Below are positions 3,750-59,853 of a stretch of 64,000 bases of DNA, piece by piece. The DNA is from Spirochaetia bacterium (GTDB lineage Bacteria; Spirochaetota; Spirochaetia; UBA9216), in assembly GCA_965140585.1 (NCBI GenBank), contig OZ223270.1:1-64000 (forward strand). Direction: 5' to 3'. Numbering within the stretch: the first letter of the stretch is position 1; each line of letters opens with the position of its first letter. Position numbers and translations under genes: made by a program. The notes under the pieces are model-generated. The model did not search any database. It saw nothing but the letters and a program-made list of their open reading frames with translations, and was not told the DNA's origin.

Positions 3750-3853
3750 TTACTATAAATATATCTAAAAAAAGATCTAAAGTTAAGGGGTTTTAGGCCA
3801 AAGTTCTTTATTTTCTCTTTACAACTCAGAATTAATGGTGTAAGTCAAATACT

Positions 3854-26928: not shown

Positions 26929-26971
26929 TCTTCTTTATCCTCCGTACTCTATCCGGTATAATATAATACTA

Positions 26972-28372
26972 ATGATGCAGAAAACCTACTTCAAACATAT
27001 ACTGGAAACAGCAGCAATAATATTTGTAATAGCTGCCGCTGATTTTTTTATCAAATTCGGCGGAACCGGTTTCTCGGACCTGCTATTTTCACCATATGTT
27101 ATTGCATCACTAATCTGCGCAGTTATATACGACCGCATCTCAGGTTTTACAGCAATACTGCTATCTGCCGCTGCAGCTGGTATTCAAATTCTAACAGGCA
27201 GCGAACCTTTTTCAGGAAACATGCTCGGATACACCCTCCCCGCTGCTACCAGCCTCGTTCTTGTTTATATCTTCGGCACCATAAGGGCAAATGACCGGAT
27301 AAAAATGCAGGAAATAAAAAACCGCCACAGAGAACTTGCCGCAGAGAATCAGAGACTGAAAAGTCTTTCTGATGCACAGTTTGAAATAACCAGAGAACTG
27401 GAGCAGAGAATTTCAGGACAGAGAGTTTCAATGAGCTCGCTTTACAACCAGATGCACAGAATGGACAGCCTGAACCTGAATAAGTCACTCGATATCCTGC
27501 TGGAAACTGTTGAAATGTTCACGGACACAACATCGGCATCCATCTGGGCGCCTTCCAACGTTCCCGGCTTCCTTTCACCCGCAGCATCAAGGAGTAAATC
27601 AGGAAAGATAGACAACTCTGAATTCCTTGATATGGAAAACAGCATTGAGGGCTGGGTCTTCAGGAACAACAGAATGATATCTGTCCGAATGATTAACAAT
27701 TTCGAACATCTAAGTAAAATGGACGCCGGTGATAATATAATAACTCTCCCTATATCTATCCAGAAGAAAGTCTGGGGCGTTCTAAATATCGAAGAAATGC
27801 CTTTTATAAAATACAACAGCTATACCGAGAAAATACTTGAAATCATAATAAGCCTGGCCGAACCCGCACTTGCGCGCGCTGTGAACTATGAAAAACAGTC
27901 CCAGCAGAACGAAATTGATAAAATCACCGGCCTGCCGCTGTTTTCACAGCTTTACAATATGCTTGAAAAATATAAACCGGAAACCGGCGAAGAACCGCCG
28001 AAGATCAGCCTCCTGATTGTTGAGATAGCAAACTACCAGCAGCTGTTTGAAAGCTTCAAAAAAAAGAAACTCTGGAATGTATTCACCGATTTCATCAATG
28101 AAATTCAGCTTCTTGCTGCAGGTATGGCAGAATTTTTCATGTTCAAATCTGAGAACCAGTTTGCGGCACTGATCCCCGGAGTATCCTCTGACGGAGCATC
28201 ACTTCTATGCCTCGAAATACTCGAAATGGCTAATAACGGGCTTGGAGAAATCGACGGACGGGCAGTGCAGCCTGAACTGATAATCGGCTATGCAACTCTC
28301 GGCGATAACGCATCTGATACAGAAGAGCTTATCAAGGAAGCGGAACACATCCTTGAAATTCAGAAGATCTAG
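26972..28372 (+). CDS. pelD: PelD-like protein (4 TM, coiled coil, GAF, degenerate GGDEF)
   Basis: Four N-terminal TM helices, GAF (VWGVLNIEEMPF), IDKITGL start of a GGDEF fold with SENQF at the active-site position; first gene of the pel-like operon. Start moved to MMQKTY. Confidence 0.75.
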   Translation: MMQKTYFKHILETAAIIFVIAAADFFIKFGGTGFSDLLFSPYVIASLICAVIYDRISGFTAILLSAAAAGIQILTGSEPFSGNMLGYTLPAATSLVLVYIFGTIRANDRIKMQEIKNRHRELAAENQRLKSLSDAQFEITRELEQRISGQRVSMSSLYNQMHRMDSLNLNKSLDILLETVEMFTDTTSASIWAPSNVPGFLSPAASRSKSGKIDNSEFLDMENSIEGWVFRNNRMISVRMINNFEHLSKMDAGDNIITLPISIQKKVWGVLNIEEMPFIKYNSYTEKILEIIISLAEPALARAVNYEKQSQQNEIDKITGLPLFSQLYNMLEKYKPETGEEPPKISLLIVEIANYQQLFESFKKKKLWNVFTDFINEIQLLAAGMAEFFMFKSENQFAALIPGVSSDGASLLCLEILEMANNGLGEIDGRAVQPELIIGYATLGDNASDTEELIKEAEHILEIQKI

Positions 28373-28377
28373 GGAGG

Positions 28378-29100
28378 ATGGACATGTCTGCAAACAGCTA
28401 TGACTACATCAAATCCATGGATCAGTACTTTGCACCTAAAACCCCCTTTGCGGCGTACAAGGCAGCAAGAAAAGGCTTTATCCCCGCTGAAGTTTTCATC
28501 TACAAGACAACATCAATTGAACCGGTTATAGAAAATCCTGATAATCTGTATGAAATAGAAAGAATCCTTGCCCAGCGTGACAGAGACATCATGACAAACA
28601 GTCTGCTTGTTGACATCCTCAATAAACTGGTCAAAAACAGAGATAAAGAAATTGCGCTGTTTGCAGCTGAAAGCATAAATGCCATAGAAAACGAATACAA
28701 CCGGAAGATTGAAGAAGCAGCAGATGATAATTTCAGGCTGAAAGCCGATCTCTACATGCAGATGTCTGTGATCAACAAGATGACTCCGGATCTTAAAAAT
28801 TTCTACCTTCAGGAATCTTTCGGGTGCTACAGGGAAATCCAGAAGAAGAAAGAACTGATACGTAAGGACCGTCTTAACATGGCAAGAGTACTTCTGGAAC
28901 TTAACCTGCCTTTTCAGGCAAAAGTAGTTCTTGCAGATGCCGAAAAGGGCGTTCCCGAATTTATACTTATGAAAGCTGAAATTGCCTTCAGGGAAAGAGA
29001 TTTCGCAGAAGTGAGCAGATACCTCAGCCTTCTTGAAACACATCGTAATGATCTGGATACTGAAACCCTGGAACTCATAGACTTCTGGAAGGAACAATGA
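28378..29100 (+). CDS. PelE-like HEAT/TPR protein
   Basis: Position between pelD and pelF; L..LV.N.D.EIALFAAESINAIE HEAT-like motif followed by TPR-like helices; no TM segment. Confidence 0.6.
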   Translation: MDMSANSYDYIKSMDQYFAPKTPFAAYKAARKGFIPAEVFIYKTTSIEPVIENPDNLYEIERILAQRDRDIMTNSLLVDILNKLVKNRDKEIALFAAESINAIENEYNRKIEEAADDNFRLKADLYMQMSVINKMTPDLKNFYLQESFGCYREIQKKKELIRKDRLNMARVLLELNLPFQAKVVLADAEKGVPEFILMKAEIAFRERDFAEVSRYLSLLETHRNDLDTETLELIDFWKEQ

Positions 29101-30494
29101 ACGGAAGAAAAAAAATAGCACTCGTCCTTGAGGGCTCCTATCCCTATATCACAGGCGGTGTGTCAGCCTGGACCCATGATCTTATTTTTAATCTTCCTGA
29201 ATTTGATTTTATTCTATATACCATATCACCCGAAGAGGATATGGAACTGCGCTACACCCTTCCTGAAAATGTGATACTGCACCATGACATAATACTCAAT
29301 AAACACTACGAATCATCAGAGCACCCGCCTACACGGAAAGACACCGATACCGCAGTTTTAATAGCTCACGATCTTACCGAACACGGGGATCCGGGAAGCT
29401 TCAGACAACTTGTCAAAATAATACCCGAAGGCTATTTTCTATATGATAAGGCCATAAACAGCGAGACCGGCTGGCAGAGGATGATAGAGGGGAACCTGAA
29501 GAATAACCCTATCTATGCATTTACAGATTACTACTGGGCCTGGAAGTCAGCCTTCGATATGCTGTTCACAATAATCGGAAGCAGGGCGCCACAGGCGGAT
29601 ATATATCATGCAATTTCAACCGGCTTTGCCGGAATAGCGGCTATTTCAGCCTCGATAAGGCACAACAAACCATGCATCCTGACCGAGCACGGTCTTTACC
29701 ACAAAGAACGCGAAATGGAAATCAGAAAGACCAACATCATCCGCGGATACCAGCGCGATATGTGGACCGGCCTTTACAATAACTTCAGTACAATCTGCTA
29801 CAAGCATGCTGACAAAATCATCTCTCTGTTCGAAGAGAACAGACGGAAACAGCATGAACTTGGCGCCGATTCCCAGAGGACCGAAGTAATTCCGAACGGT
29901 ATAGATATTCAGAGATTCATGGTTGAGCGCGAGGAAAAAGAAGGTTTTCACGTGGGACTTGTAGGTAGGGTTGTCCCGATAAAGGATATTAAAACCTACA
30001 TTTCTACGGCAAAAATCGTACTGGAGCGGATACCCGAGGCAATTTTTTACTGCATCGGCCCTACAGATGAGGATCCCGGCTACTACAGGGACTGCGTGAT
30101 GCTGACTGAGAGCCTGAAAATAACAGACCGTTTCAAATTTACAGGCAGGCAGAATGTACTGGACTATTATAAATTCCTTGATGTGATGGCACTGACAAGT
30201 GTCCGCGAGGCACAGCCGCTTGTTATACTTGAAGCCTACTGCGCAGGTGTTCCGGTTGTATCAACCGGTGTCGGAAACGTTCCAGAGATGCTTGATTATG
30301 ATGAGCGTTTTATATCGGCGCCAAAGGATGCCCAGAAGCTGGCATCTGCAATAATTTATCTGTACAGTCATCCCGATGAACGAAAGTCACTCATAGAATC
30401 AAACCGGTACAAAACCGTAACCTTCTACGACAAGACTGACCTGCATAAGAAATATTCGGAAATCTATACCACCACAGGGAGGAATGCTGAATAA
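29097..30494 (+). CDS. pelF: GT4 glycosyltransferase PelF
   Basis: LEGSYPYITGGVSAW, YHAISTGFAG, LTEHGLY.KER, GRVVPIKDIKT, EAQPLVILE (EX7E). Confidence 0.93.
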   Translation: MNGRKKIALVLEGSYPYITGGVSAWTHDLIFNLPEFDFILYTISPEEDMELRYTLPENVILHHDIILNKHYESSEHPPTRKDTDTAVLIAHDLTEHGDPGSFRQLVKIIPEGYFLYDKAINSETGWQRMIEGNLKNNPIYAFTDYYWAWKSAFDMLFTIIGSRAPQADIYHAISTGFAGIAAISASIRHNKPCILTEHGLYHKEREMEIRKTNIIRGYQRDMWTGLYNNFSTICYKHADKIISLFEENRRKQHELGADSQRTEVIPNGIDIQRFMVEREEKEGFHVGLVGRVVPIKDIKTYISTAKIVLERIPEAIFYCIGPTDEDPGYYRDCVMLTESLKITDRFKFTGRQNVLDYYKFLDVMALTSVREAQPLVILEAYCAGVPVVSTGVGNVPEMLDYDERFISAPKDAQKLASAIIYLYSHPDERKSLIESNRYKTVTFYDKTDLHKKYSEIYTTTGRNAE

Positions 30495-31825
30495 TGGCCG
30501 GAATCGGTTTTGAACTGCGGAGAGTTGTAAGCAAGGGCGGAGTAAGCGCGTTTATGCAGACTGCTATGTCCGGCGCAATGATTGTTGCCGGGCCATGGCT
30601 GCTTTCAATTCTAACAATTTCCATTATTCAGAAACTGATCGATTTTTCAGGAAACGGCAGCCTTGAACTATTTATGGGTGCGGTAATCTACTGTTACGCG
30701 TTCTCACTGTTTATATTCGGCGGAGTACACTACCTTTTCACAAGGCGAATGAGTGATCTGATTTATGAAAAGAAGGAGCGGCAGGCCCTGGGATATGTAC
30801 TGCTGCTTATGCTTCCGGTAGCAGGTGTATCCGCAGTTATCGCACTTCCTGCAGTGTTGAACATTGACACAGGAATAGAACATCTTCTTCTATTTAAAGC
30901 ATCCGCAGCCGTTCTATTTATCACCGTCAACTGCCTTTGGCTTATAATGCTCTTTGTGTCTGTATTGAAGTGGTATATCAAGATTCTTGTGGTATATACC
31001 GCAGGACTTGCATCATCACTGTTTCTGATAAAACTTCTTTCACAATCATACGGAACCGCCGGGGCTCTGGCCGGATTCACAGCCGGCCACATTGTAATAG
31101 TATTACTGCTTGCCCTGCTTTCAGCTGCAGCCTACAGCCCCCTGAAGCCTGAGCTGGAAAAAAAATCAGGATTCATTTACAAATACCGATACCTGCTTGG
31201 TGCCGGGGTATTCTATTACTGGGGAATTTGGGCAGATAAACTGATATTCTGGTTTACAAAAGGCACCACTGTTGAAGGAACTTTTTTCAAAATGTTTGCA
31301 GAATATGATATACCTGTTTATCTTGCCAATCTGACTATGATTCCCGGACTCATTTTCTTTGTTATATATTCAGAAACAGACTTCTACATAGCTCTTAAAC
31401 ACTTCCTGCACCGTCTGATAAATTCACATTACCCCGATATTAATAGAGCAAAACTGAAGCTGAAGGAAACTACCGTAAAGAGTCTTAAGGAACAGAGCCT
31501 GCTTCAGGCGGTTACCGCCGGATTCTTTATTATTATCACTGATGACCCGGTTATGCAGATTACACTTGCAGCAGTATTCTCACACCTTCTGCTCTTAACA
31601 CTGCTTAACTATCTGTATTACATAGAGCAGTACAGACATGCCTTCTACTCTTCACTCCTGTTTTTCACTGCGAATGCTGTAACAGCCGTCATACAGGTTT
31701 TAGTAACCGCTATCCCGCCTGGAACGGCATATTTCATCTCGGCTTCTGCAGCATCCCTGTTTGCTATGAAGCTCCTTTTTTATGATTTAAAAATTGCCGA
31801 CAGATATATTCTGACGAAGACCTGA
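30494..31825 (+). CDS. pelG: Pel polysaccharide transporter PelG
   Basis: Hallmark N-terminus MAGIGFELRR, GPWL.SI, IWADK.IFW, YD.P.YLA.L..IPG, ETDFY; polytopic membrane protein. Confidence 0.93.
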   Translation: MAGIGFELRRVVSKGGVSAFMQTAMSGAMIVAGPWLLSILTISIIQKLIDFSGNGSLELFMGAVIYCYAFSLFIFGGVHYLFTRRMSDLIYEKKERQALGYVLLLMLPVAGVSAVIALPAVLNIDTGIEHLLLFKASAAVLFITVNCLWLIMLFVSVLKWYIKILVVYTAGLASSLFLIKLLSQSYGTAGALAGFTAGHIVIVLLLALLSAAAYSPLKPELEKKSGFIYKYRYLLGAGVFYYWGIWADKLIFWFTKGTTVEGTFFKMFAEYDIPVYLANLTMIPGLIFFVIYSETDFYIALKHFLHRLINSHYPDINRAKLKLKETTVKSLKEQSLLQAVTAGFFIIITDDPVMQITLAAVFSHLLLLTLLNYLYYIEQYRHAFYSSLLFFTANAVTAVIQVLVTAIPPGTAYFISASAASLFAMKLLFYDLKIADRYILTKT

Positions 31826-33201: not shown

Positions 33202-34029
33202 ATGAAAGGACTTATTGTAGCAGCCGGGTACGGCACCAGATTTCTTCCCGTGACCAAAACCATCCCGAAGGAAATGCTTCCTCTTATAGATAAACCGTCA
33301 ATTGCTTTTATAATTGAGGAGTTTATTAATTCCGGAATCGACGAGATTCTAATTATTACATCCAGACGTAAAAAAAGTCTGGAAGACTTCCTTGACAGAG
33401 AGATCGAACTTGAGTCGGTATTTGACAAAGAGGGTTCCGCAGCAAAGGCTGCAAAAATCAAGCCCTATGACGCGAAATTTCTTTTTGTACGTCAGCAGGA
33501 AATGATGGGAACCGGACATGCACTTATGCAGGCAAGACCGATGCTTGACGGCGAACCCTTTGTTGTAGCCTATCCTGACGACCTGCACTTCGGAGACAAG
33601 CCGCTGGCCCTCCAGCTTATTGAAAAATACAGAGAAACCGGCTGCAGCGTCATGGCGACCCTGCATAATCCGCCGAACCTTGAACGCTACGGGATTCTTA
33701 AGCTGGCCGACGATGGCCTGCACGTTACTGACATCGTTGAAAAGCCGGCTCCGGGAACCGAACCAAGCTGTGAGGCTTCAATAGGACGGTATCTATATAC
33801 TCCTGAAATTTTTGACTTACTGGAAGAAGGATGGTCAAAACATACTTCTGGTGAATACTTCCATACATATGCTCTTAATAAAATGATGTCGGCTGGAAAC
33901 GTAGTTTACTGCGAAACCGAGGGCGAGAGACTCGATACGGGAGCCCCGGCGGGCTATCTGCAGGCGATAATTAAGTACGCAATGCAGGACCCCGAACTTG
34001 CTGAAGTTCTGCGCAGCGAAGTGAAATAA
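33202..34029 (+). CDS. galU: UTP--glucose-1-phosphate uridylyltransferase family
   Basis: AAGYGTRFLPVTKTIPKEMLP, VRQ...GTGHA, VEKP, GRY, DTG. Confidence 0.85.
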   Translation: MKGLIVAAGYGTRFLPVTKTIPKEMLPLIDKPSIAFIIEEFINSGIDEILIITSRRKKSLEDFLDREIELESVFDKEGSAAKAAKIKPYDAKFLFVRQQEMMGTGHALMQARPMLDGEPFVVAYPDDLHFGDKPLALQLIEKYRETGCSVMATLHNPPNLERYGILKLADDGLHVTDIVEKPAPGTEPSCEASIGRYLYTPEIFDLLEEGWSKHTSGEYFHTYALNKMMSAGNVVYCETEGERLDTGAPAGYLQAIIKYAMQDPELAEVLRSEVK

Positions 34030-34053: not shown

Positions 34054-35139
34054 TTACCAGCGGTTGAGAACCTTCTCGGCAAACCCCATAAAGTCTTTTA
34101 TTTCCAGGGCTGTTCCGTCATCAAGGACAGCCCTGCCGCTGAATTTACCGAAAACCTGATGTTGGCAGCTTCTGATAATAAGAATGTTGGTATCGGAAAA
34201 CCGGTCTATAAGCGGTTTGAATTCCATTTCAAATCTGCCGTCAGAGCTTGTAAATGTCCAGGGTTCCGTAAACTGCTCACAGCCTTTTGAATCTACCGGA
34301 ATATTGAAAGTCACATTTTCAAACTTATGGCCCCTTCCGTCATAGAAGATGATATTCTCGGTTGCGGCCGAGGTATCACCGAACCCGTAGCCTATGTTGA
34401 ATCCGAAGCGCTTTCCATCAATAATACCGGAACCTGACCCCCAGTACCACGTATTATTGTAAGTCCACACGCCCCTTCCCCAGTCAAGGACAGCATAACT
34501 GCCGGTCGACGGTAATTCACTATCCTGCCTGGATTCTGTACCCTTATTTGTAAAATCGATGCTTTTCCGCCCGGATATAAGACTGCCTTCAGCCTTCATG
34601 CAGTTGATTTTACGGTTAAAGTAGAAATGGGCTGATTTATCAAAGGGAGTAGCAATGACCATGCTGTCATCTGAAAGCGGCTGTTCAAGAACAAGCGACC
34701 CGCTTAGGCCATTATCTCCGTCAAAAGCCGGATAATCAACCTCAAGAGTTCTTATAAGGCTGTTTCCGCTCTGACTGAGAAGAAAACTTATTCTAATGCC
34801 TTTTTCATTTACAACCACATCACCTTCCTCAGTGGAACCGGGCAAATTAAGTTTCCCCATAGGAAAGAGCCCCATAACTGAACCGCTTGTTTCGGTTTTA
34901 TTTTTAAAATCAAAAACTGTGACAGAATAAAATGCCATATATCCGTTATCTGCAACCGTCAGAGCAATACCGTCGTTGTCATTCATAACACAGTAATAGT
35001 CCCATTCTTTGATTCTCCATGCTGGGGCTTTAATCATATTCCGCCCGTAACTAAACAGGGGCTTTCTTGCCCAGCCCGGAGTACCAATATTCCCATTAGA
35101 ATTGAGAAGTACAGTTTTTTCGGTAATTTCAGTCTGCAT
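34054..35139 (-). CDS. DUF2804 family protein
   Basis: RIKEWDYY, LDWGRGVW.Y...WYW, FGFNIGYGFGDTSAATEN, QHQVFG.FSG, GFAEKV.NRW. Confidence 0.85.
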   Translation of the reverse strand: MQTEITEKTVLLNSNGNIGTPGWARKPLFSYGRNMIKAPAWRIKEWDYYCVMNDNDGIALTVADNGYMAFYSVTVFDFKNKTETSGSVMGLFPMGKLNLPGSTEEGDVVVNEKGIRISFLLSQSGNSLIRTLEVDYPAFDGDNGLSGSLVLEQPLSDDSMVIATPFDKSAHFYFNRKINCMKAEGSLISGRKSIDFTNKGTESRQDSELPSTGSYAVLDWGRGVWTYNNTWYWGSGSGIIDGKRFGFNIGYGFGDTSAATENIIFYDGRGHKFENVTFNIPVDSKGCEQFTEPWTFTSSDGRFEMEFKPLIDRFSDTNILIIRSCQHQVFGKFSGRAVLDDGTALEIKDFMGFAEKVLNRW

Positions 35140-36040
35140 ATTCGACCTCCATATTTTTAATTAAGCCTTCAAGCTGTTGAGCTTCTGCCGGCCGGCCATG
35201 TTTTCTGCAGCCTTCTATCCATACCCGGCATTTAAATTTAAGTTCATTAAAAGCAGCACTCTTCTGTGTGCCTGAAAAGCCATTCCAGCAATACCCTTCA
35301 GTATACAAGGCTCCGGGAAAATCAGGGTATATTTCTTTAAATGCAGCGGATGCACCCAGAAGCCCGGCAAGCCCCGTAAGTCTGAACCATTCTATTCTGC
35401 CGTACTTTTCAGACAACTGCGGCCAGTCCCCGGCCTGTTTACATGTATGTTTTTCATTCAGATAACCCACATTTGCGGCAGGGGTTATGCGTAACCAGTA
35501 TTCATAGTCCTCCGCTATCTCCAGATTTTCGTTGAACCCGCCGGTATTAAAATAAAAATCACGGCACATCATAACTGTTGAGGGACCGATTATACATTTC
35601 TTAAGAGCATCTGCAAAAATGTCGCCTTCGCGGCGGTGTTTCTGCCCCTTCTGGCTGACCTCTTTACCGTTTCTCATCCACTGTTCGCGGGTATGTGATA
35701 CCTGAAGAGCCTTCGCCTGCATAAGCTCAAGCTGATTTTTAAGTTTATCAGGAAACCAGTAATCATCGGAATCGAGAAAAGCCAGAAACTCACCTTCTGC
35801 AGATTCTGCGCCTCGGTTTCTTGCCGCCCCGGGCATTCCGCTATGCCGGAACTTTAAAACCCTTATACGGCTGTCTTCGGATGCAAGTCTGTCGGCTATA
35901 AAGGGCGTTTCATCTGTGGAGCCGTCATCTGTGATGAGCAGTTCGAAATCAGTCATTGTCTGAGAAAGGACGCTGCCGACTGCCTTTATAAGGTGGGCGG
36001 GACGGTTGTACACAGGGATTATGGCAGATATAAGCGGCAT
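35129..36040 (-). CDS. GT2 family glycosyltransferase
   Basis: ISAIIPVYNR, DDGSTD, ARNRG, FLDSDD, EDYEYWLR. Confidence 0.92.
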   Translation of the reverse strand: MPLISAIIPVYNRPAHLIKAVGSVLSQTMTDFELLITDDGSTDETPFIADRLASEDSRIRVLKFRHSGMPGAARNRGAESAEGEFLAFLDSDDYWFPDKLKNQLELMQAKALQVSHTREQWMRNGKEVSQKGQKHRREGDIFADALKKCIIGPSTVMMCRDFYFNTGGFNENLEIAEDYEYWLRITPAANVGYLNEKHTCKQAGDWPQLSEKYGRIEWFRLTGLAGLLGASAAFKEIYPDFPGALYTEGYCWNGFSGTQKSAAFNELKFKCRVWIEGCRKHGRPAEAQQLEGLIKNMEVEYAD

Positions 36041-36758: not shown

Positions 36759-37898
36759 ATGAAAAAACTCTTCCTTAAGATATTTACAGTATTCTCACTT
36801 CTGACACTACTTACAGGCTGCTCATACGATTATTTCTCGAGGTATGAAAGCAAGAATCTTATTCAGCACCTGAGTCTGGCAGACTGGACTCTTTCAGTAA
36901 GCACTACATACATGGATTACAGCACCGTCACTGCAGCAGTAGCCGGAACTTCCGGGCTTCCCGATGCAGCAGCTGCTATTTACTGCATTGAAAACCTGAA
37001 CCTGGTTCCCGACGGAGATTTTGAAGCAACCACACCTGACACCAACTCATTTCCTGCTGGATGGGACAATTCTAATGCCGATGCAGGAGACGGAGTGGAG
37101 TCGGGCTCTCCCATTGACGGACAGGCCCTTCGATTTGACGAGGGTATTGGAGAATATCTTACTTACGATGTAAACACGATATCTGACGGAGCTATTCCCG
37201 ACTCAAACTACCTGCTTAGATTCGATCTGTCGGGAGATAACACCGGAAACTATTATTTCAGAATTGAAGACACATCCGGTTCAGGAAATGTAACTACATA
37301 TTCTGCAAACCTTCTCCAGAGTGGAACTGCATTCGCCTTTCCTGCTGATTTTTCATCTATATCCCTTACAGAATTTTTAATACATACTGACGACAGCGAA
37401 GTTTTTCATATAAACCTCAGCGACGTCACACTTCAGGCAGGGTATATTGACAACTTCAGGATCGTAAAGTCAGATCAGGATCAGAATATTTCAATTGAAC
37501 TGCCCTTTATCGATGAGAATAGAATCGACTCACTTAACCTTATCTCGGGCTATTACAGATTCAGTGTCTGGGTTAAAGCTGATCCGAATGCCGGTGTTTC
37601 AAATACATTTGCTGCAGAGGCTGTTTCCCTCTCGATAAGTTCATTGGATGAGGAAGGTCTTGCATCAAGGGCAAACAGTGCAGCATTCGACGCTTCTGAT
37701 TATTCATCATTTTCCAATTGGACAGAGATTTATATTGATGCCGAGCTTCAGATTGCACTCCCCTACTGGGGGGAGACCACTGTAATAAAGCTCCAGATAA
37801 GCCCGGGTGATATTACCGCAGGAGCTTCCGGCATTGATTCAGGTTCAATACTTGTATCAACACCGGGACTTTATTATTCCCCCGACTCAGAGTTCTGA
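36759..37898 (+). CDS. Lipoprotein with possible carbohydrate-binding (CBM4/9-like) domains
   Basis: Lipobox LLTG-C; NLVPDGDFE...GW and YRFSVWVKA...W motifs typical of jelly-roll modules. Confidence 0.7.
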   Translation: MKKLFLKIFTVFSLLTLLTGCSYDYFSRYESKNLIQHLSLADWTLSVSTTYMDYSTVTAAVAGTSGLPDAAAAIYCIENLNLVPDGDFEATTPDTNSFPAGWDNSNADAGDGVESGSPIDGQALRFDEGIGEYLTYDVNTISDGAIPDSNYLLRFDLSGDNTGNYYFRIEDTSGSGNVTTYSANLLQSGTAFAFPADFSSISLTEFLIHTDDSEVFHINLSDVTLQAGYIDNFRIVKSDQDQNISIELPFIDENRIDSLNLISGYYRFSVWVKADPNAGVSNTFAAEAVSLSISSLDEEGLASRANSAAFDASDYSSFSNWTEIYIDAELQIALPYWGETTVIKLQISPGDITAGASGIDSGSILVSTPGLYYSPDSEF

Positions 37899-37899
37899 G

Positions 37900-40800
37900 C
37901 TATTTAACAATCATAACCTTCCTATACTCATCAATTCCCGGGGCAACTATTCTTATGAAATAAATCCCCCTGGCAACGATATTACCGGCCCGGTTTGTTC
38001 CGTCCCAGCTGAAGTTGTACGTGCCGGCACCCTGTGCGCCGCGATGAATAACCTTAACCAGATCACCGGCCATATTAAAGACATTAATGGTAACCATTCC
38101 GGCATTCGGCAGGTCATAAGTAAGAACGGTCTTCTCATCACCCTCAACAGGATTGATGACATTATTAAGTATCGTCACACCGGCCGCTTGCTTCTTTATA
38201 TCCTTAATTGAAAAACTCCATGGAACAATGGTCCGAGGATCATCCTTATCAAGAAGATTAGCACAGAAGAGATCTCCGACTTTAAGCAGGAACTGGACTT
38301 CATTACCTGTTTCAATCTCGGAATCATCCGAAGGAATCATAAATTTTCTGGTACCCTCACTACTGCTGTATGGGTTAAGACCTCTGGCTGATGTGTTTGC
38401 CGCAGGAACAAGAGCATTGTTATAGCTCGGGAGCCAGAAGCCGTCATTAAGAACAGACTCTGAAGGATCAACGTCATAATAGAGGCTGGCCGAAAGACCT
38501 TTAAACCTGTCGGCTGCAAGAATTGAGGCTTCAAGCGTAATATTACTGTCTGTCAGATATCCTGTACCGTCAAAGATTCTCAGGCTTGTATCTGTTCCAT
38601 ACAGAGAGTTATTATGCAGGCTGTCTGCCGCCCATATCGGGTTCATGACACCTATTCCGATATCAGAGAAGCGGTGTATGGAGGTAACCTCCATAGCGTT
38701 GCCCAGCTTATCATAGATCTGAGTAGCCTGGGGTATAATCTTTGCCTCAAGGATTTCATCTGCGGTAAGGCCTGAATCAAGGTTGAACCATGCTTCAAGC
38801 AGTCCGCCGCTAAGATAGCTTATTGCGGTAATTCCATTCAGAGAATTGGTTGTACCGCTGAAGCTGAAGTCGGTTTCTGCGACATTAACATAGCCTGCGC
38901 CAAAAACAGGCTCGGAAAACCTGATATATATCTTAGTATCACCAACAGCACCAAGGGCAAGTTCAATATACGGAGGAATACGCTCAACACCAGAAAGAGA
39001 AATTGAGGTGGTAGGTATAAGATTTCCGGCAAGGTCGGTTATATATCCGATTGATGCATCATACTTTATCTGAAGAGCTGTACGGGTATTCCAGGTATGC
39101 AGATCATTCAAAGTCAGTGCAAAATAAGAGTCATCAGCAACTGTAATCGGGCCGAGGAAGATCGAAGAATCCTGAACCGTAGTAGTAATACCGGTATTAT
39201 ATCCGGCTGTCAAACTTGTATCATTTACATCCGCGATAAAAAAGGCGGTATAAGGATCAATCGAGTTTGCAGCATCAATGGCACATGTAGCATCACGGAC
39301 ACCGAGGTTTGCGCCTGCTTCCGGATGAACAATTCCAGCGTCGATAGCCTGGGAGAATCCGCCCTGTGAAGTTTCATTATCCCTTATAAAGAACTCAAGC
39401 CTTTCAATCTTTCCGGTAGTAACGTTAGCGATAGAAATAATTTCATATGTATTTGGAATAACAGTATCGTCATAGACTGAAAAAATAGGAGGCTCAACAT
39501 CCCATCCGGTAATATGGTCTGCAGGCATGCTTATATTCGGTAAACTTGTTGTCCCGCTCACAAGGATATCGGAGACAGCTGTTGTGATAACCGGATCTGC
39601 TATAGCATCTGTCCCCCTGTATGGCTCAGTAGAAGGTTCAATTGTATTCCCATCGGCATCTTTAATAAAACTGTTTGCCAGCGCTTTAATAGAAACTCCG
39701 CCGGCTGTTACATCGGTATTTACGCTGTGACTTAAAAGAGTTTCTGCAGGATCTCCGAGATATCCCGGCCAGAGGGCTGTATCATCAGTTCGCCAGCCCG
39801 CTACATATAGAGTTATTCCAAAATCTCCTGACGGGTTTTCTGTACCGCTTCTATACATGGAGGTAATTGCCGGGTTACCGTCACGGCTGCCAGATAAAAA
39901 AGTTCCTGTATACGAGAAATAACCGACAACATCAACGACTGCTCCATTCTGAACAATATGACCACCGTGCTCACCGGTAGCAAAGGTTTCATCTGCACGG
40001 TCATTTGCCGGAGGCGCTCCCGCACCAATTGCATAATTAACATCATCTCCGATATCTACAGGCTCTGAATACCTGAGATGAAGGAAGTTGTGGCCGTCAT
40101 ATATCTCATCAGACGCAGCTGCCTGATGGTTCACCCGACCGCCTACAACTGCAACAAGATTCGGTCGGCATTCATCTGCAAAAGTTTCATTCGTAGATCC
40201 GTCAGCAATATCCTCGGTGTTAAGCCCATAATTCCGAATATGGTTATGGCCTTCTGCATCAAACAAAGATCCCTTCAGCATTGAAAGTGATGCTGAAATT
40301 GCCTGATGATTTCCTTCGCGGTCCGAACTTCCGGTATTACCGTCACTTGTTCCGGTTGCATCCGTATTCCATGTTGCTGTAGTCCTGTCTATCTGAAGGT
40401 AGAATGTAGTGAGATCTCCCGCACCGTCTGTGGTTGTGAAATTAAACGGAGCAGCATCATCAGCATCAATATATGAGGCACTGAAGGTAAGTCCTGAGTT
40501 TCCATCGACATAGACGTTTGAAACAGCAGCGGATATTTCATCACTATCGTTTTCGATTGCCTCTGTGAATGTAACCCTTATTACATTATCAAAGACAGTC
40601 TCATAATTTACAATCTCGGGAAATGTTGAATCTACGTTTGCAACATTATTTCCGCCGTCAGTATTTCCGTTCTGGGGATCAACGCCAAGCCAATTTGAAG
40701 CGTTACAGTAATCTACTGCCGATCTGAAAACAACTGCATAGTTTGTGCCGTAGGGCCAATCGGTTATATTATCGCCCGGAGCTGTATCAAGCCCGGTGAC

Positions 40801-46800: not shown

Positions 46801-49800
46801 GCTGCCGGCATCAACTACAGCTCCGTCATTTATGATCATCGCCCCGGTTCCGGCGGTAAGGCTGACTGCGCCGGCTCCTGAACCCGTGATATCTCCGCTG
46901 ATAGTTAATGCAGTTCCTGCATTAAGAGTAAGAGTTCCTGTGTAGGCAGAAGCCCCCGCACCAACAGTGAATGCGGCGGGTTCGCTAATATCTACATTTG
47001 CCGAATTAGTGAAAGTAACTGTATTAAAAGCATTACTGCCGTTTGTAAGAGTAATATCATTTCCAGCGCCTGCTTCAAATGCAGCAGCTCCGCTTATGCT
47101 CAGGGCTGCTCCCTGGGTTATATCTCCTCCGACAGTACAAGCAAGCCCGCCTGCTGTAGTTATAGCCGGAAGGGCAATACCGGCTCCTGTACCGGTGATT
47201 ATAAGGTCATTAATATTTGAGGACAGTACTCCGCCGAGGGTTACACTGCCGGTACCGGCATCAATTGTAAAATCACGATTTGCCCCTGAGCCGGCAACAA
47301 CTCCGGAAATCTGAATATTTCCACCGGCAGCTCCTGTATCGATACCGCTGGCTCCGGTGAGACTTATACCCGCAACCGAAACATCGTCAGCGGTAGTTAT
47401 AATATCACCATTGAGCGTCAATGGCGCGCCTGTTGACATTCCGCCGTTAAAATTGCATGTACCGGAAAGTCTTACACTTGTTGTATTCTGAAAATTAACA
47501 GCTCCGGTTATCGTGCAGCCGCTGTCCATTCTGACTGAGTATGCAGAAGCTCCAACATTGAGGGTACCAACCGTCAGAGCTTCGCGAAACCGGATTGTCC
47601 CGGTTGAAGAGGTTATATCTATCTGGTTAGAACCGGCTGTGACTGTGACACCTGCACCGAAATCAACACCGGTGGAATTTGTAATTATCAGGTTATCAGC
47701 TGTAGTAAGACTTGTTCCAACTGTAAATGCGGCAACTGCATCAAATTCGAGATCAAAGTAATCGGTGACACCGTATTCCTGAACTGCGCCTCCGCCTGTA
47801 TACCTGACCGTACCGCTGTCTGTATCTGTAGCAGAAACATTTGTACCGCCTGCTCTGCGCAGAATTGCTGTGCCCTGTAGATCAATAGAGCTGATACTGA
47901 GATCATTTGTCCCGGTCCGGAGTTCGGCGCCTGCGGAAACTATTACATCCTCACCTGAAGAATCAACAGAAAGCACCGGATAGCCGGATGCTATTACAAC
48001 ATCATCAGCCGCTGCCGGAACATAGCCCTCAACCCAGTTTCCGGCTACGGACCAGTCGCCGCCGGAAGAACCGCCCCAGTTGCATTCACGGTAAAACGTA
48101 ACTGATGAAGCATCAGTTACTGCTGTAACCTGTGTTCCTGCATTACCCGCAGTATCGCTGAAATCTATAGTGAATGCAACGGCCGCTTCTGCAATTGTTC
48201 TGTCTGCCGGCAGAAGCTGGTAAACAGCTTGATAATCATCGCCGCCCAGTGACGATTCAGTTGCCGCCCTCGACAGACTTGTTAGGGTCACAACAGGCAG
48301 GGCGGACAGTGTTTCAGACGATGTGAATGTAAGAGTAATTGCATCCTGAATCTTGGCGGTTGCAGTATCAGCATTATCGGATTGAATATGTACGGGAGCA
48401 AGCGTCGGCAGAACCTGATCAACAGTAAGTGTGACTGCACTCGTGCTTCCGGTTGTTGAGTTTCCGGCAATATCGGTAATTACAGCCCTGAGCTGTACCG
48501 TGTCGCCTTCACCAAAGTTTGTCAGAGCTTCAAACTGTGCGGCCGTTGCAGTGTGATCCTTATTTGTACTTATATCGCCGCCGCCTATAGCTATAGCCCC
48601 TGCGAGGTTCTCCCATGCACCGCCTGTCGCAAACCCCTGCAGCTGCACTGTTCCGCCGCTGAGACTTGCATCATTTGCTATGGGGATGGTTACGGTTAGT
48701 CCCGTATTTGTTGAGTTCCAGTAGTTTGCAGTAACTGTTCCGCCGGTAGCGGTTACAGCTCCGGCAGTGAATGCTGTCGGAATAATTTGATCTACAGTAA
48801 GCGTTGTTACACTTGCGCTGCCGGTTGTTGAGTTTCCGGCGACATCGGTAATAACCGCCCGGAGCTGGACTGTGTCGCCTTCACCGAAACCGGTTAAAGC
48901 CTCCAGCTGTGCAGCCGTTGCAGTGTGGTCCTTGTTTGTATTGATATCGCCGCCGCCTATGGCAATGGCTCCGGCAAGGTTCTCCCAGGCTCCGCCTGTC
49001 GCAAACCCCTGCAGCTGTACTGTTCCACCGCTGAGGCTTGCATCATTTGCTATCGGGATGGTTACGGTTAGTCCCGTATTTGTAGAGTTCCAGTAGTTTG
49101 CGGTAACTGTTCCGCCGGTTGCAGTCACTGCTCCGGCTGTAAACGCTCCGGGGGCTGCAACATCAAGCTCGCTTGTATCAGTTGCATCCAGACCGGTATT
49201 TCCTGCCGGATCTGTTAAAGCTACGGTAAGAGTTACAGTACCGTCATTTAGGGCGCTTAAATCATCATTTATTGTATCGGTTGCTGTTGCTATTGTTCCG
49301 CTGCCGGTGACAGGCCCACCTCCGCCGCTGCTTGTATATGTGTAGCTGTAATCTGCTCCTACTTCAGCTCCTGTGAAGTCAAAGTCCAGGCTTGCAACTT
49401 CTGAGGCATTGATATATCCGTCAACATCAGCAATAGCAACCGTATATCCGGCGGGTGCGGTTTGATCGACAGTAAGCATTGTTGCACTCGCGCTGCCGGT
49501 TGTTGAGTTTCCGGCGACATCGGTAATAACCGCCCGGAGCTGGACTGTGTCGCCTTCACCGAAACCGGTTAAAGCCTCCAGCTGTGCAGCCGTTGCAGTG
49601 TGGTCCTTGTTTGTATTGATATCGCCGCCGCCTATGGCAATGGCTCCGGCAAGGTTCTCCCAGGCTCCGCCTGTCGCAAACCCCTGCAGCTGTACTGTTC
49701 CACCGCTGAGGCTTGCATCATTTGCTATCGGGATGGTTACGGTTAGTCCCGTATTTGTAGAGTTCCAGTAGTTTGCGGTAACTGTTCCGCCGGTTGCAGT

Positions 49801-50919
49801 CACTGCTCCGGCTGTAAACGCTCCGGGGGCTGCAACATCAAGCTCGCTTGTATCAGTTGCATCCAGACCGGTATTTCCTGCCGGATCTGTTAAAGCTACG
49901 GTAAGAGTTACAGTACCGTCATTTAGGGCGCTTAAATCATCATTTATTGTATCGGTTGCTGTTGCTATTGTTCCGCTGCCGGTGACAGGCCCACCTCCGC
50001 CGCTGCTTGTATATGTGTAGCTGTAATCTGCTCCTACTTCAGCTCCTGTGAAATCAAAGTCTACGCTTGCAACTTCTGAGGCATTGATATATCCGTCAAC
50101 ATCAGCAATCGCAACCGTATATCCGGCGGGTGCAGTTGTATCAACATCAGCATTGCTTGTGTCTGCGACTGTAGTAGTATTTCCTGCATCATCGGTTGCA
50201 GTAATACTTACGTTTAAATTGGAGGTATCGATCCCGTCCAGAAGAGCATAACTAGCAGTCCATGTTTCAGCTGTATTTGCCATGGCAACCGCAGCCCCGC
50301 CTCCGAACTCTGTAAAATCGGCAGCCGCAGAGCTGATGTCCCCGTTATTATCGCCTCCGGCGGTATTGTTCCAGGTTACGGTGACAGTATCGCCTGATAT
50401 AAAAACACTGCCTGTGCCGGTAGCTCCGCTTATGCTTAGATTACCGTCGGTCACTGTGGGAGACTGATTATCACAGGAGAGATTTGTACCGTTATCAACC
50501 GGTCCGGTTGTACCATCACCATTGGTAACAGTAACTGTTATCCTCACCGTTGAACTGTCTATAATACCTGCGACTATTGTATACGAAGCTGTCCATATGC
50601 CATCACCCGAAGCTGCGTCATCACCGCTACCGTCATCAACAGCAGCAGCTGCAGCTGCCCCCCCGAACTGGGAAAAATCTACGCTTACCGCGGTTATATT
50701 ATTTGTGGCCGGCGGAGCATAGTTTAGAGGACTATTTGTACTATCCCATTCTACAACAATGGTATCTCCGGTTATAAAGACGCTTCCTGTGCCGGTAGCT
50801 CCCGAGATAGTCATATCGGTTGTCTGCACATTAGGCACTGCAAACAGAAAAACTATTGAGCAAATGTTAAATACAGAGGTTAATAGCAGTAATTTAATTC
50901 TCTTTCGGTTGAACAGCAT
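37900..50919 (-). CDS. Giant acidic surface protein/adhesin: signal peptide, Ig-like repeats, long beta-helix-like region, C-terminal FlgD-Ig domain
   Basis: Single ~4340-aa ORF rich in T/A/G/D/S; D.AGN Ig-like repeats; WGG...DWSVAGNW...VP...DDVVI; ends ...FSWDGTNRAGNIVARGIYFIRI...RKVMIVK. Start moved to MLFNRKR. Confidence 0.88.
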   Translation of the reverse strand: MLFNRKRIKLLLLTSVFNICSIVFLFAVPNVQTTDMTISGATGTGSVFITGDTIVVEWDSTNSPLNYAPPATNNITAVSVDFSQFGGAAAAAAVDDGSGDDAASGDGIWTASYTIVAGIIDSSTVRITVTVTNGDGTTGPVDNGTNLSCDNQSPTVTDGNLSISGATGTGSVFISGDTVTVTWNNTAGGDNNGDISSAAADFTEFGGGAAVAMANTAETWTASYALLDGIDTSNLNVSITATDDAGNTTTVADTSNADVDTTAPAGYTVAIADVDGYINASEVASVDFDFTGAEVGADYSYTYTSSGGGGPVTGSGTIATATDTINDDLSALNDGTVTLTVALTDPAGNTGLDATDTSELDVAAPGAFTAGAVTATGGTVTANYWNSTNTGLTVTIPIANDASLSGGTVQLQGFATGGAWENLAGAIAIGGGDINTNKDHTATAAQLEALTGFGEGDTVQLRAVITDVAGNSTTGSASATMLTVDQTAPAGYTVAIADVDGYINASEVASLDFDFTGAEVGADYSYTYTSSGGGGPVTGSGTIATATDTINDDLSALNDGTVTLTVALTDPAGNTGLDATDTSELDVAAPGAFTAGAVTATGGTVTANYWNSTNTGLTVTIPIANDASLSGGTVQLQGFATGGAWENLAGAIAIGGGDINTNKDHTATAAQLEALTGFGEGDTVQLRAVITDVAGNSTTGSASVTTLTVDQIIPTAFTAGAVTATGGTVTANYWNSTNTGLTVTIPIANDASLSGGTVQLQGFATGGAWENLAGAIAIGGGDISTNKDHTATAAQFEALTNFGEGDTVQLRAVITDIAGNSTTGSTSAVTLTVDQVLPTLAPVHIQSDNADTATAKIQDAITLTFTSSETLSALPVVTLTSLSRAATESSLGGDDYQAVYQLLPADRTIAEAAVAFTIDFSDTAGNAGTQVTAVTDASSVTFYRECNWGGSSGGDWSVAGNWVEGYVPAAADDVVIASGYPVLSVDSSGEDVIVSAGAELRTGTNDLSISSIDLQGTAILRRAGGTNVSATDTDSGTVRYTGGGAVQEYGVTDYFDLEFDAVAAFTVGTSLTTADNLIITNSTGVDFGAGVTVTAGSNQIDITSSTGTIRFREALTVGTLNVGASAYSVRMDSGCTITGAVNFQNTTSVRLSGTCNFNGGMSTGAPLTLNGDIITTADDVSVAGISLTGASGIDTGAAGGNIQISGVVAGSGANRDFTIDAGTGSVTLGGVLSSNINDLIITGTGAGIALPAITTAGGLACTVGGDITQGAALSISGAAAFEAGAGNDITLTNGSNAFNTVTFTNSANVDISEPAAFTVGAGASAYTGTLTLNAGTALTISGDITGSGAGAVSLTAGTGAMIINDGAVVDAGSGTISVSSGTDLTLGRLVTTSAGAPAVDITVGGEVIDGGDTGGSDIAAGGELQISALDGIGNSGANGAVETDVVSLDLSLSAAGDIDIIENNDVLILDITAANGNVTLTGGGAITVNANDAVADVSGNTISLSSNGDIGTAASSIELDISTALNADSTSANGDIYLDSLGVFPVGLIDAGAGDVEVTATGGITDASGDAAADIAANILWVNAPASFALDTSVSVIRGTVTGSFTVDEVSAIQLGNATGGISSGAGALSIEADGSITTGNTVSSGADQNLTLTTTGNGDTITLGHAVSAGGSGIVDINSGDDFTLNNGIVLGSGTGNITVDTLNGGVLTVNGSITTAGAGTINLTSVDAVLMDTTSLIQTVNGQIDVSAGATGLTVDVIEATGGSAAINLTAVGSAIEEADNTALIGAAGSTTVLTLSAGTDIGAGSALNTNVGTLVASAGGILSINEFTAIILGAGSGVTSSGGDVTIQTAGAITTGNSIATTGANGAITLTSTGTNPITLSNTVTANGSGNIDINSSSAFTLSNGVVMSSTSGDITIDTTGANVLLIYGNITTGLAGTIDITGTDVVTMDSVSLVQTAAGQIDMSAGANGLTVDVVESTGNGAINLTAAGDAIEEADNTARVGAVNSTTVLTLTAGTDIGTLNSLNTNVGSITASTAAAGDISIVEANNVTLTSITAASGDVNIVSTAGTVNVAAVSASGTVALTAASGSILEAAATDAASDITAGSISLTAQDAIGTSAAGEEIEIDLGGGSLDLTTTAAAPSGNINIAETNGALSSSQISSSTAGASVQTIIVYNRNAGIIVNNAWNLGNDNLELRAATAGDIAFVGGSLTTSGDISLESAAGGITDDDGTADIICGNLIIDADTGVGDANVLETTVSTVDLDNNTSGTVQITESNGLTINKLYNVNRAETLVSTTGSILIGNSVIPTISAGTSTVTLTAAAGEIYDSAAADTDIDINANTVDLNASTGIGDTNEIELASVTILTADTASGNIDIDHTADAGLSVTTMTTGGASTIDFDQTGNQSLTLVTVTASNGDITVTNTGGTGADTGLGSITADTADDTVSISASGAIDDSTASDTTADVTAAVIILTADDSGIGQAANGAVDVRAAVGLSADSSADGSDIALYDPVGPTPVVLLTTGGTGDIVLTSLNAVTDPGGNAENDISASDLNITAQGGINLDTAVSTMTLNAQAAGSVTIRETDAVTFTSVTASNGPVTLSTVNAGNIVLTNIVSSNDTDVNDISVTAANGDIEVDTIDAQGSNADISLTTANGAVTNTDSTSNVTGDVLTISTANGTGVSFGQAISTTVNTLNVGNSAGGDIAIDESGAVTVTGLSTVAGGNIRLDADGTITLNGAGASAAGAGGIILTGIGAGNNLDINAAINGGTGGITLTGGTSIDTNSNVTTSNNTIQFASNTYITDDATVTVSTGAGVGGTITFSGTLDGEGSDFTDNLTLIAGTGNIDFNAAVGSSVDMGNVLISSALDVTADAAFSANTLTQTAGTGDTQFDGAITLQALGGMDITTSTVTINSTINTLAAGNGGTVTITNAGLLDIAAGANMSLDGAFLQDGAGDVETAGNITTTNDSIYFTRNVTITDNGTVSLDTDAGAGTITFNGTLNGDDANFDDDLSLTAGTGNIDFNGIVGGANDLGDVSINSAADVTADLAFSANTLTQTAGTGDTQFDGAVVLQAAGGMDLTTNTVTINSTIDTSTAGNGGAVTITNAGLLDIAPGADISLDGAFTQDGAGAVQTAGNVTTTQDDIYFTSAVTVTDDESIVFDTDINDTGSIQGDLTFNSTVVSSSADTGILSLDSGIGTLTLNGVVGSGLIPFRYVLIRGAGNCTSTAATIDISAQDLYIDAGGYTLVLQKHLSADNLIFYDGTLNLNARTLTTNGDLAVFGGTYSAIDSARAATHAGNIYFAYPNTGALAYYPSAGTYNAGTAVFSTAPGAAFANLNGSTINAGGNFYVNGAGLPGTAAWNLIVNDNSTVTGLDTAPGDNITDWPYGTNYAVVFRSAVDYCNASNWLGVDPQNGNTDGGNNVANVDSTFPEIVNYETVFDNVIRVTFTEAIENDSDEISAAVSNVYVDGNSGLTFSASYIDADDAAPFNFTTTDGAGDLTTFYLQIDRTTATWNTDATGTSDGNTGSSDREGNHQAISASLSMLKGSLFDAEGHNHIRNYGLNTEDIADGSTNETFADECRPNLVAVVGGRVNHQAAASDEIYDGHNFLHLRYSEPVDIGDDVNYAIGAGAPPANDRADETFATGEHGGHIVQNGAVVDVVGYFSYTGTFLSGSRDGNPAITSMYRSGTENPSGDFGITLYVAGWRTDDTALWPGYLGDPAETLLSHSVNTDVTAGGVSIKALANSFIKDADGNTIEPSTEPYRGTDAIADPVITTAVSDILVSGTTSLPNISMPADHITGWDVEPPIFSVYDDTVIPNTYEIISIANVTTGKIERLEFFIRDNETSQGGFSQAIDAGIVHPEAGANLGVRDATCAIDAANSIDPYTAFFIADVNDTSLTAGYNTGITTTVQDSSIFLGPITVADDSYFALTLNDLHTWNTRTALQIKYDASIGYITDLAGNLIPTTSISLSGVERIPPYIELALGAVGDTKIYIRFSEPVFGAGYVNVAETDFSFSGTTNSLNGITAISYLSGGLLEAWFNLDSGLTADEILEAKIIPQATQIYDKLGNAMEVTSIHRFSDIGIGVMNPIWAADSLHNNSLYGTDTSLRIFDGTGYLTDSNITLEASILAADRFKGLSASLYYDVDPSESVLNDGFWLPSYNNALVPAANTSARGLNPYSSSEGTRKFMIPSDDSEIETGNEVQFLLKVGDLFCANLLDKDDPRTIVPWSFSIKDIKKQAAGVTILNNVINPVEGDEKTVLTYDLPNAGMVTINVFNMAGDLVKVIHRGAQGAGTYNFSWDGTNRAGNIVARGIYFIRIVAPGIDEYRKVMIVK
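48815..50133. repeat. Near-identical tandem duplication with 675-bp period inside the giant gene
   Basis: 48815-49458 matches 49490-50133 with only a few substitutions; identical antisense ORFs at 48872 and 49547. Confidence 0.95.
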
Positions 50920-51006
50920 ATCTTTAAAAATATACCACATTAAGATTTATGTGACATTACTTTTTATATATCGAAGATTTTCAGCTGTAACGTTAAATCT
51001 TTCACT

Positions 51007-59794: not shown

Positions 59795-59853
59795 TAAACA
59801 CTCCTTAAAAAGCATATACTACGTGTAAAAAACACGGTTAAGCCGAATTTAAA

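Follow-up and report, generated by a model that had tools for sequence, protein, structure and literature searches.

A stretch of 64,000 nucleotides from a Spirochaetia bacterium (contig OZ223270.1, positions 1 to 64,000; the whole stretch is called the window) carries on its minus strand the gene for a giant acidic protein of 4346 amino acids (P0001, 37900..50940), identified from its open reading frame (ORF) and translation. We report here that the last 96 residues of this protein, hereafter the tail, form a domain that resembles the type A C-terminal domain (CTD) of cargo proteins of the Bacteroidota type IX secretion system (T9SS), an assignment supported by profile hidden Markov models (HMMs), by the predicted fold and by conserved end motifs. 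The same genome encodes a PorV/PorQ-family barrel and a 1580-residue candidate homologue of the SprA/Sov translocon, and both co-occur with the tail among spirochaetes. We put at about even the chance that tail, barrel and SprA-like protein together make up a T9SS-related module for export or anchoring that serves a single cargo and works without a motor.

A CTD-like domain ends the giant protein

The giant protein is enriched in T, A, G, S and D, abounds in beta-strand repeats and has, over its whole sequence, a net charge of −386 and an isoelectric point (pI) of 4.05. Its N-terminus, in which a positive stretch leads into a hydrophobic run ending in LFA, was judged by eye to be a Sec-type signal peptide (about residues 1-34; 50839..50940, minus strand), in agreement with the Sec signal proposed by an earlier note on this DNA, and signal-like starts are also present in most full-length homologues. 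These homologues (n = 15, 2456 to 6349 residues) all come from spirochaetes wherever the source gives a name, with Oceanispirochaeta, Salinispira and Spirochaeta isovalerica among the named hosts, and the host is indeed, as had been thought, not a member of the Bacteroidota. An additional 94 proteins, shorter or partial, carry the tail at 50% identity or more; seven of them are named 'FlgD immunoglobulin-like domain containing protein' and three 'T9SS type A sorting domain-containing protein' in the source, so that the resemblance had already been flagged by automatic annotation. Near its N-terminus the giant protein also contains near-identical internal repeats of about 230 residues (residues ~260-900, window 47000-50000), one marker string of 23 residues being present twice and another of 28 residues three times. 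Because of these long near-identical repeats, the gene is hard to assemble in draft genomes.

The tail spans about residues 4251-4346 (37903..38190, minus strand), ends in RKVMIVK and is followed immediately by the stop codon (37900-37902). The last ~90 residues of the 4346-residue ORF match the earlier reading of this end; the domain itself was confirmed, and its boundary lies at ~38190, slightly beyond the position 38175 first given. The description of a basic tail in an acidic protein was right for the acidic part and slightly overstated for the tail, whose net charge is +1 and pI 8.3. When scored against the three families that had been named for it, the tail matched Pfam FlgD_ig (PF13860) best of all families, with 53-55 bits for a cut-off of 27; it passed TIGR04183 (cut-off 23) when isolated, with 30.3 bits for the 96-residue tail and 28.5 bits for a 166-residue piece, the whole giant protein staying below at 20.8 bits; and it remained under the cut-off of 27 of Pfam Por_Secre_tail (15.7-17.8 bits). 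CHU_C was likewise under its cut-off (17-19 bits), and the NCBIfam FlgD equivalog models recognised the immunoglobulin (Ig)-like part only (14-46 bits for cut-offs of 230-383). The same picture was obtained with the family: all 16 aligned tails matched FlgD_ig, TIGR04183 (E ≤ 0.01, best E 1.8e-7) and the CTD region of the NCBIfam PorU model, and 15 of the 16 matched that of the PorZ model.

The AlphaFold2 model of the tail is a seven-stranded Ig-like sandwich with a predicted local distance difference test (pLDDT) score of 92.3. In an excerpt of a CTD study, the type A CTD is described as having seven strands packed into a compact Ig-like 3+4 beta-sandwich (PMC11285876). Using VIA-align, the model was found to be closest to the PorU CTD (6za2_B, Z 10.0, 89 residues aligned), followed among CTDs by that of PorZ (Z 9.5) and by a translocon-bound substrate CTD (8glk_D, Z 8.8, 75 of 75 aligned), and the top Foldseek matches were FlgD (3osv), the Fn3 domains of streptococcal C5a peptidase and the PorZ CTD. 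Ahead of the tail, alignment and model both give consecutive Ig-like beta-sandwich domains (residues ~3751-4250; 38191..39690, minus strand): the model of the C-terminal ~596 residues (pLDDT 80.1) is predicted to be all-beta, with a chain of such domains preceding the tail, and Foldseek retrieved only generic multi-Ig proteins with it.

No part of the giant-protein family is better conserved than the tail. Over the last ~596 residues in 28 genomes, the mean pairwise identity was 0.59 in the tail and 0.71 in its last 21 residues (compare with 0.27 in the region upstream), and the tail was terminal, with at most one extra residue, in all 16 homologues and all 28 aligned C-terminal sequences. Four residues, G42, R90, K91 and K96, were invariant in the 16 tails. 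According to the same excerpt, CTDs do not function without two elements, a glycine of the loop that joins strands 3 and 4 and a lysine of the last strand (PMC11285876). In the model, G42 lies in the predicted strand 3-4 loop and K91 in the last strand, the expected places, as does K96, and by position G42 and K91 would be the conserved counterparts of the two elements.

One tail per genome

When all ORFs of the genome were searched with phmmer, the tail was found at a C-terminus in the giant protein only. The remaining FlgD_ig matches were internal repeats in three envelope proteins, none of which matched TIGR04183 at E 0.1, the tail alone passing the cut-off. The first of these proteins (C6:1231423-1235679, 1418 residues) has about seven FlgD_ig repeats and an end that looks OmpA-like by eye; the second (C1:414863-417346, 827 residues) has FlgD_ig repeats and an end which, again by eye, resembles that of the first; the third (C4:6828-8393) has 521 residues and internal repeats.

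Three samples were used for comparison: 61 relatives, 201 genomes of the class, and 301 genomes of the phylum that include 46 of the class. Tail matches were present in 30 of the 61 relatives and in exactly one copy in 27 of these 30, the exceptions being G012 with a weak second match, G037, whose one copy is broken into two parts, and G053 with three. The sole match of G019 was weak (31.9 bits in a 125-residue frame) and was not included in the family. Some genomes of other classes in the phylum sample, and no others, had four to nine tails each. The tail is thus not a sorting tag shared by several proteins of this genome.

We also considered that the tail could be common to all giant secreted proteins, and rejected this, since two other giants of the genome carry signal peptides and no tail. 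These two, of 3349 (C6:1092511-1102560) and 3339 (C7:588335-598354) residues, have near-identical N-termini and differing C-terminal ends.

A PorV/PorQ-family barrel and a distant SprA-like protein

On a contig other than that of the giant gene, we found a gene (C4:146604-147863) for a PorV/PorQ-like barrel of 419 residues with C-terminal TPR, the sole gene of its type in the genome. It matched NF033709, the PorV/PorQ family, with 84.8-85.1 bits over model positions 1-324 of 326, the PorQ model with 54 bits and the PorV model with 31 bits; it is also the protein in which the 23.8-bit PorV match of the genome scan lies. The barrel-TPR gene is divergent from genes for a 1013-residue TPR protein and for a 1537-residue protein with BNR, Big_13, HAMP and SpoIIE phosphatase domains (C4:144001-162000). 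Excerpts of two earlier texts mention such barrels in spirochaetes: a preprint has a PorV/PorQ-family barrel in Brachyspira, and a modelling paper on Treponema pallidum speaks of 'PorV/FadL-like' barrels.

The candidate SprA/Sov-like outer-membrane protein (1580 residues; C6:1030255-1034997, minus strand) was reached through an intermediate family. Three profiles were built: A5, from five spirochaetal proteins of ~1920 residues; A6, from 13 sequences of the 1580-residue family; and A7, from three Bacteroidota SprA. The A5 members themselves match the SprA model TIGR04189 at E 1.5e-30 and 105 bits (cut-off 200). A search of the genome with the A5 profile picked up the 1580-residue ORF; when five spirochaetal SprA-like proteins were used one by one with phmmer against the genome ORFs nothing was retrieved, the profile alone finding it. 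Comparison by hhalign gave a probability of 98.6 (E 5.8e-16, 955 columns) between A5 and the 1580-residue protein, of 100 (E 5e-53, 1049 columns) between A6 and A5, and of 99.7 (E 2.1e-26, 1000 columns) between A5 and A7. These comparisons support, by way of A5, the 1580-residue protein as a putative distant homologue of SprA/Sov. Its relatives are unnamed or called 'hypothetical' and have no Pfam domain; the last residue is aromatic in 10 of the 13 A6 sequences, the ranges of the other three being cut before the end.

Downstream of the 1580-residue gene, and in the same orientation, lie genes for proteins of 465 and 754 residues, the latter with a FecR domain (C6:1024001-1041000; L221:2518-10997, minus strand). 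Both products have signal peptides and a final F, as in outer-membrane barrels, and are faintly similar to genes of ~400 residues that come after SprA-like genes in other classes.

Tail, barrel and SprA-like protein co-occur

Among the 61 relatives, the barrel was present in 41, including all 30 with a tail match, and the 1580-residue protein in 40, including 27 of the 30; searching with the A6 profile added G043 and G045, not G019. The relatives in which a barrel or an SprA-like protein is present and the tail is not are all assemblies of at least 130 contigs, in which the giant repeat gene may have remained unassembled. In the 46 class genomes of the phylum sample, the 30 tail-positive genomes were the very same 30 that were A6-positive, and the other 16 had neither; all 30 also had the barrel. 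One genus was split, with both tail and SprA-like protein in seven genomes and neither in five, which argues against a purely deep-lineage effect.

Outside the class, 42 genomes were tail-positive. A6 matched in 39 of them and A5 in two more, so that 41 of the 42 had an SprA-like match, the exception being a genome that is 71% complete; an A4-type (PorV/PorQ-like) barrel was found in 30 of the 42. Over the whole phylum sample SprA-like matches were present in 137 of 301 genomes. In sister classes, all seven loci compared (from six genomes) have a gene for a tail-ended protein of 275-744 residues and, 0-124 bp behind it in the same orientation, a gene for a barrel of this type. Genomes with several tails (G209, G224, G237, G259, G248, G211 and G278, with 4-9 tail proteins each, many of ~400-750 residues) show several tail genes directly preceding a PorV-like barrel and carry in addition the ~1920-residue distant SprA homologue, a partial SprA match being seen in six of the seven; no GldM match was found in the multi-tail genomes.

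These distributions bear on whether the tail could be an anchor only, that is, whether it would tether the giant protein to the barrel, as PorZ is tethered to PorQ, after a crossing by some other route with which the SprA-like protein has nothing to do. The tail-barrel cassettes of the sister classes, which have no SprA-like gene in the same cassette, fit such an anchor, as do the weak direct link between the 1580-residue family and SprA (see below) and the fact that no motor or ring genes were found. Yet the tail and SprA-like sets coincide exactly in the 46 class genomes, even within one genus, nearly every tail-positive genome of other classes has an SprA-like match, and no alternative exporter was identified for a protein of 4346 residues. 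We thus regard an anchor without export function as unlikely. The other proposal, a T9SS-related module with an SprA-like part, has to be weighed against the missing components of a canonical system.

Search for canonical T9SS components

A number of results, which we gather here, weigh against a T9SS-related module. The models for canonical components were validated on five named Bacteroidota genomes, reached by a 16S probe, in which SprA was recovered in four (~1300-2900 bits), GldM in all five and PorV in four (360-540 bits); the GldL, GldN and PorU models had no such positive control. With these models, GldM was absent from the genome and from the 201 genomes of the class; GldN, for which the model lacks a control, was not found in the 61 relatives; GldL, with the same limit, gave weak matches only in the genome; and the matches of the PorU model were restricted to its CTD region, no sortase being found. 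To our knowledge, no T9SS functions without its motor. The SprA model TIGR04189 had no match in the genome, the 1580-residue protein included, the direct hhalign comparison of A6 with A7 was weak (probability 24, E 8e-4, over 176 N-terminal columns), and neither A5 nor A6 retrieved anything from the sequences of solved structures. As to the barrel, it just misses the NF033709 cut-off of 90 and is thus related to the family and not a filed member, and its best curated match is treponemal UPF0164 / FadL-like (115 bits, cut-off 21.4), whose members may be lipid importers. As to the tail, VIA-align gives dozens of unrelated Ig domains a score that differs by less than 1 Z from those of the CTDs, and the nearest solved chains by sequence are FlgD Ig domains only, with no CTD among them. 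Finally, the tail, barrel and SprA-like genes are unlinked in this genome, the gene adjacent to the tail encoding an unrelated lipoprotein; three tail-negative genomes of the class also hold the barrel; the genomes that have none of the parts are mostly small; and related genomes are not independent of one another, so that counts of co-occurrence overstate their statistical weight.

The genome scan, in which the PorV model reached only 23.8-31 bits (cut-off 250), indicates that a canonical T9SS is not present, GldK, PorP/SprF and a type II secretion system secretin being outside the set of components searched. This bears on a full export of the Bacteroidota type, in which PorU would remove the tail and the protein would be linked to lipopolysaccharide. 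That the isolated tail is over the TIGR04183 cut-off, and that the NCBI pipeline gives the T9SS type A name to 3 of the 94 related proteins, would be in line with such a system. It is nevertheless contradicted by the comparison with the controls: no GldM here against five out of five, no TIGR04189 match against four out of five, and PorV scores of 23.8-31 bits against 360-540 bits in four out of five. Since, in addition, the PorU model covers the CTD region only, GldN is missing from the relatives and there is one cargo per genome, we consider a canonical T9SS very improbable indeed.

The opposite candidate, that the genome has no T9SS parts at all, was rejected as well, given that a PorV/PorQ-family barrel and an SprA-like protein were found and that they co-occur with the tail. 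What had been proposed as a T9SS-related pathway therefore stands in part: the two outer-membrane candidates speak for it, and the lack of GldM, GldN and a PorU sortase, together with the weak direct link to SprA, speaks against it. The same division holds for two of the findings by which the earlier note would have given it up, since the tail proved to be unique in the proteome and T9SS-like outer-membrane parts proved not to be absent.

Neighbouring genes and the FlgD_ig domain

The giant gene is convergent with a lipoprotein gene (P0111; 36759..37898, plus strand; 379 residues, lipobox LLTGC) whose product matches no Pfam or NCBIfam family. The two stop codons are separated by 1 bp (window 37896-37902), too little for terminators to fit in between; the corresponding distance in relatives ranges from 7 to 349 bp. 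The lipoprotein adjoins the tail gene in 9 of 11 compared loci and is present in 25 of the 61 relatives, 23 of which have the tail; it is adjacent in 19 of these 23. It is missing from seven tail-matching genomes and is poorly conserved (37% mean column identity), and a protein-atlas search gave only weak CBM_4_9-like leads (scores 0.88-0.90). The convergent lipoprotein is possibly an accessory factor.

In another reading, the tail would be an ordinary FlgD_ig module that serves structure, adhesion or the nucleation of folding and is perhaps bound by the lipoprotein, its T9SS likeness and its co-occurrence with barrel and SprA-like protein being due to shared fold and ancestry. FlgD_ig is the best-scoring family of the tail, FlgD domains are its nearest solved sequences, unrelated Ig domains tie with the CTDs structurally, and three other envelope proteins of the genome have internal FlgD_ig repeats. 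The adjacency of the lipoprotein in most genomes that have both genes points the same way, with the reservation that kin share gene sets. Against this, the internal repeats miss TIGR04183 and the tail alone passes it; the extreme conservation of the tail and its fixed terminus suggest a conserved partner, yet the lipoprotein shows little conservation; the seven tail-matching genomes without lipoprotein compare with none without barrel; and tail and barrel genes are adjacent in sister classes, with co-variation inside one genus. We rate an ordinary FlgD_ig module as unlikely, to the same degree as an anchor only.

Further along the window lie a gene for a second small lipoprotein (P0112; 36044..36679, minus strand; 211 residues), which belongs to no family and occurs in 3 of 11 compared genomes, one for a family-2 glycosyltransferase (35129..36040, minus strand; Glycos_transf_2, 111.8 bits), which flanks the locus in 9 of the 11, and one for a sugar-nucleotidyl transferase (33202..34029, plus strand; NTP_transferase, 111.7 bits), which does so in 8 of the 11. 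Just downstream of these conserved neighbours is a Pel-like exopolysaccharide locus (window 23245-31825) that comprises genes for a 1227-residue TPR protein (23245-26928, minus strand), a PelF-like protein with DUF3492 plus GT1 (29097-30494) and PelG (30494-31825), as well as a 484-residue protein with a weak GGDEF/EAL-like match. With two lipoproteins, glycosyltransferases and the Pel-like locus as neighbours, no transporter gene is adjacent to the giant gene, as had been noted before. Elsewhere in the window, an intact DctQ is accompanied by two fragments of a tripartite ATP-independent periplasmic (TRAP) transporter (54836-56036), of 163 residues (DctP positions 143-283 only) and 198 residues (DctM positions 319-367), which are probably decayed genes; a second and complete DctPQM set is found at 58748-61649.

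A possible route for the giant protein

If tail, barrel and SprA-like protein do form a T9SS-related module, the giant protein, as its N-terminus suggests, would reach the periplasm by Sec, and its last 96 residues are predicted to adopt an Ig-like sandwich fold with seven strands, of T9SS type A CTD / FlgD_ig type. The tail would then be recognised by the only PorV/PorQ-family barrel of the genome, and passage across the outer membrane would probably be helped by the SprA/Sov-like 1580-residue protein; both ideas draw on co-occurrence, on remote homology and on the adjacency of genes seen in sister classes. The tail is probably not cut off, because no PorU-type sortase was found, and, uncut, it may remain attached to the barrel and keep the giant protein at the surface, in the way that PorV and PorQ retain the CTDs of PorU and PorZ in Porphyromonas. 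Every physical interaction in this scheme, the surface location and the retention of the tail are what we infer from genomes and models.

Compared with the type A CTDs of Bacteroidota cargo (TIGR04183 / Por_Secre_tail), the tail shares its position at the extreme C-terminus of a presumably Sec-exported protein, its length of ~90 residues, the seven-strand Ig-like sandwich, and a score above the TIGR04183 cut-off when isolated; its invariant G42 and K91 may, by position, correspond to the conserved glycine and lysine of those CTDs. It differs in that it marks a single cargo per genome and not tens of them, in that the whole protein falls under the TIGR04183 cut-off and the tail under that of Por_Secre_tail, and in that the host has no detectable GldLM/PorLM motor or GldN; nor was PorU found, which makes cleavage or linkage to lipopolysaccharide improbable. 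A second parallel is offered by the attachment complex of Porphyromonas gingivalis, in which single CTD-bearing proteins, PorU and PorZ, are held by PorV and PorQ: here too a single CTD-like protein stands beside a PorV/PorQ-family barrel, and the CTD of PorU is the top structural match. Unlike PorU and PorZ, however, the cargo is a giant repeat protein and not a sortase or a lipopolysaccharide carrier, and unlike PorV and PorQ, the barrel, with its TPR arm, falls into the treponemal UPF0164 branch, the pairing of the two being suggested by genomes alone.

With the Ig-like domain of FlgD, the flagellar hook cap protein, the tail has in common the best family score, the nearest solved sequences, the Foldseek match to 3osv and the signature WDG..N..G..V..G.Y. 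Its context is not that of FlgD: neither the N-terminal region of that protein nor a flagellar operon accompanies it, and it ends a putatively secreted protein of 4346 residues. It also adds a CTD-type start (..NP) and end (RKVMIVK) that the internal repeats of the genome, as judged with TIGR04183, do not have. The 1580-residue protein, for its part, would be like SprA/Sov in being a large outer-membrane protein, with homology traced via A5 over about 1000 columns at each step; it is unlike SprA/Sov in being ~800 residues shorter, in matching neither TIGR04189 nor a solved SprA, and in giving a weak direct profile comparison.

Implications

In the excerpts of the literature consulted, the T9SS is reported from 60 of 97 Bacteroidetes genomes and from no other clade (PMC4793230), it is described as confined to the Bacteroidetes (PMC11611037, PMC7906972), and CTD proteins are stated to be absent from species without T9SS genes (PMC11285876). 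Our literature search returned nothing on a T9SS-related module in spirochaetes, only mentions of PorV-like barrels in Brachyspira and Treponema pallidum. Our comparison indicates that, across a large part of the spirochaete phylum, the tail is accompanied by a PorV/PorQ-like barrel and by a distant SprA-like protein. More tentatively, and with rather less confidence than an even chance would imply, they could be the parts of one system, made of a distant SprA/Sov-like protein, PorV/PorQ-like barrels and CTD-type tails, that handles several small cargoes, each encoded beside its own barrel, in some classes and one giant cargo in the class studied here.

If the module is what we propose, the translocon-plus-carrier core of the T9SS would be older and wider than the Bacteroidota and the Fibrobacteres-Chlorobi-Bacteroidetes (FCB) group, and would be able to work without the PorLM/PorKN motor and ring. 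Should tail, barrel and SprA-like protein indeed act as one machine, it would explain how spirochaetes display giant proteins at their surface and would provide a minimal system in which the recognition and movement of a CTD can be followed without a motor. The 'PorV/FadL-like' barrels of spirochaetes and a family of hypothetical outer-membrane proteins of ~1100-2000 residues would also gain a role that can be tested.

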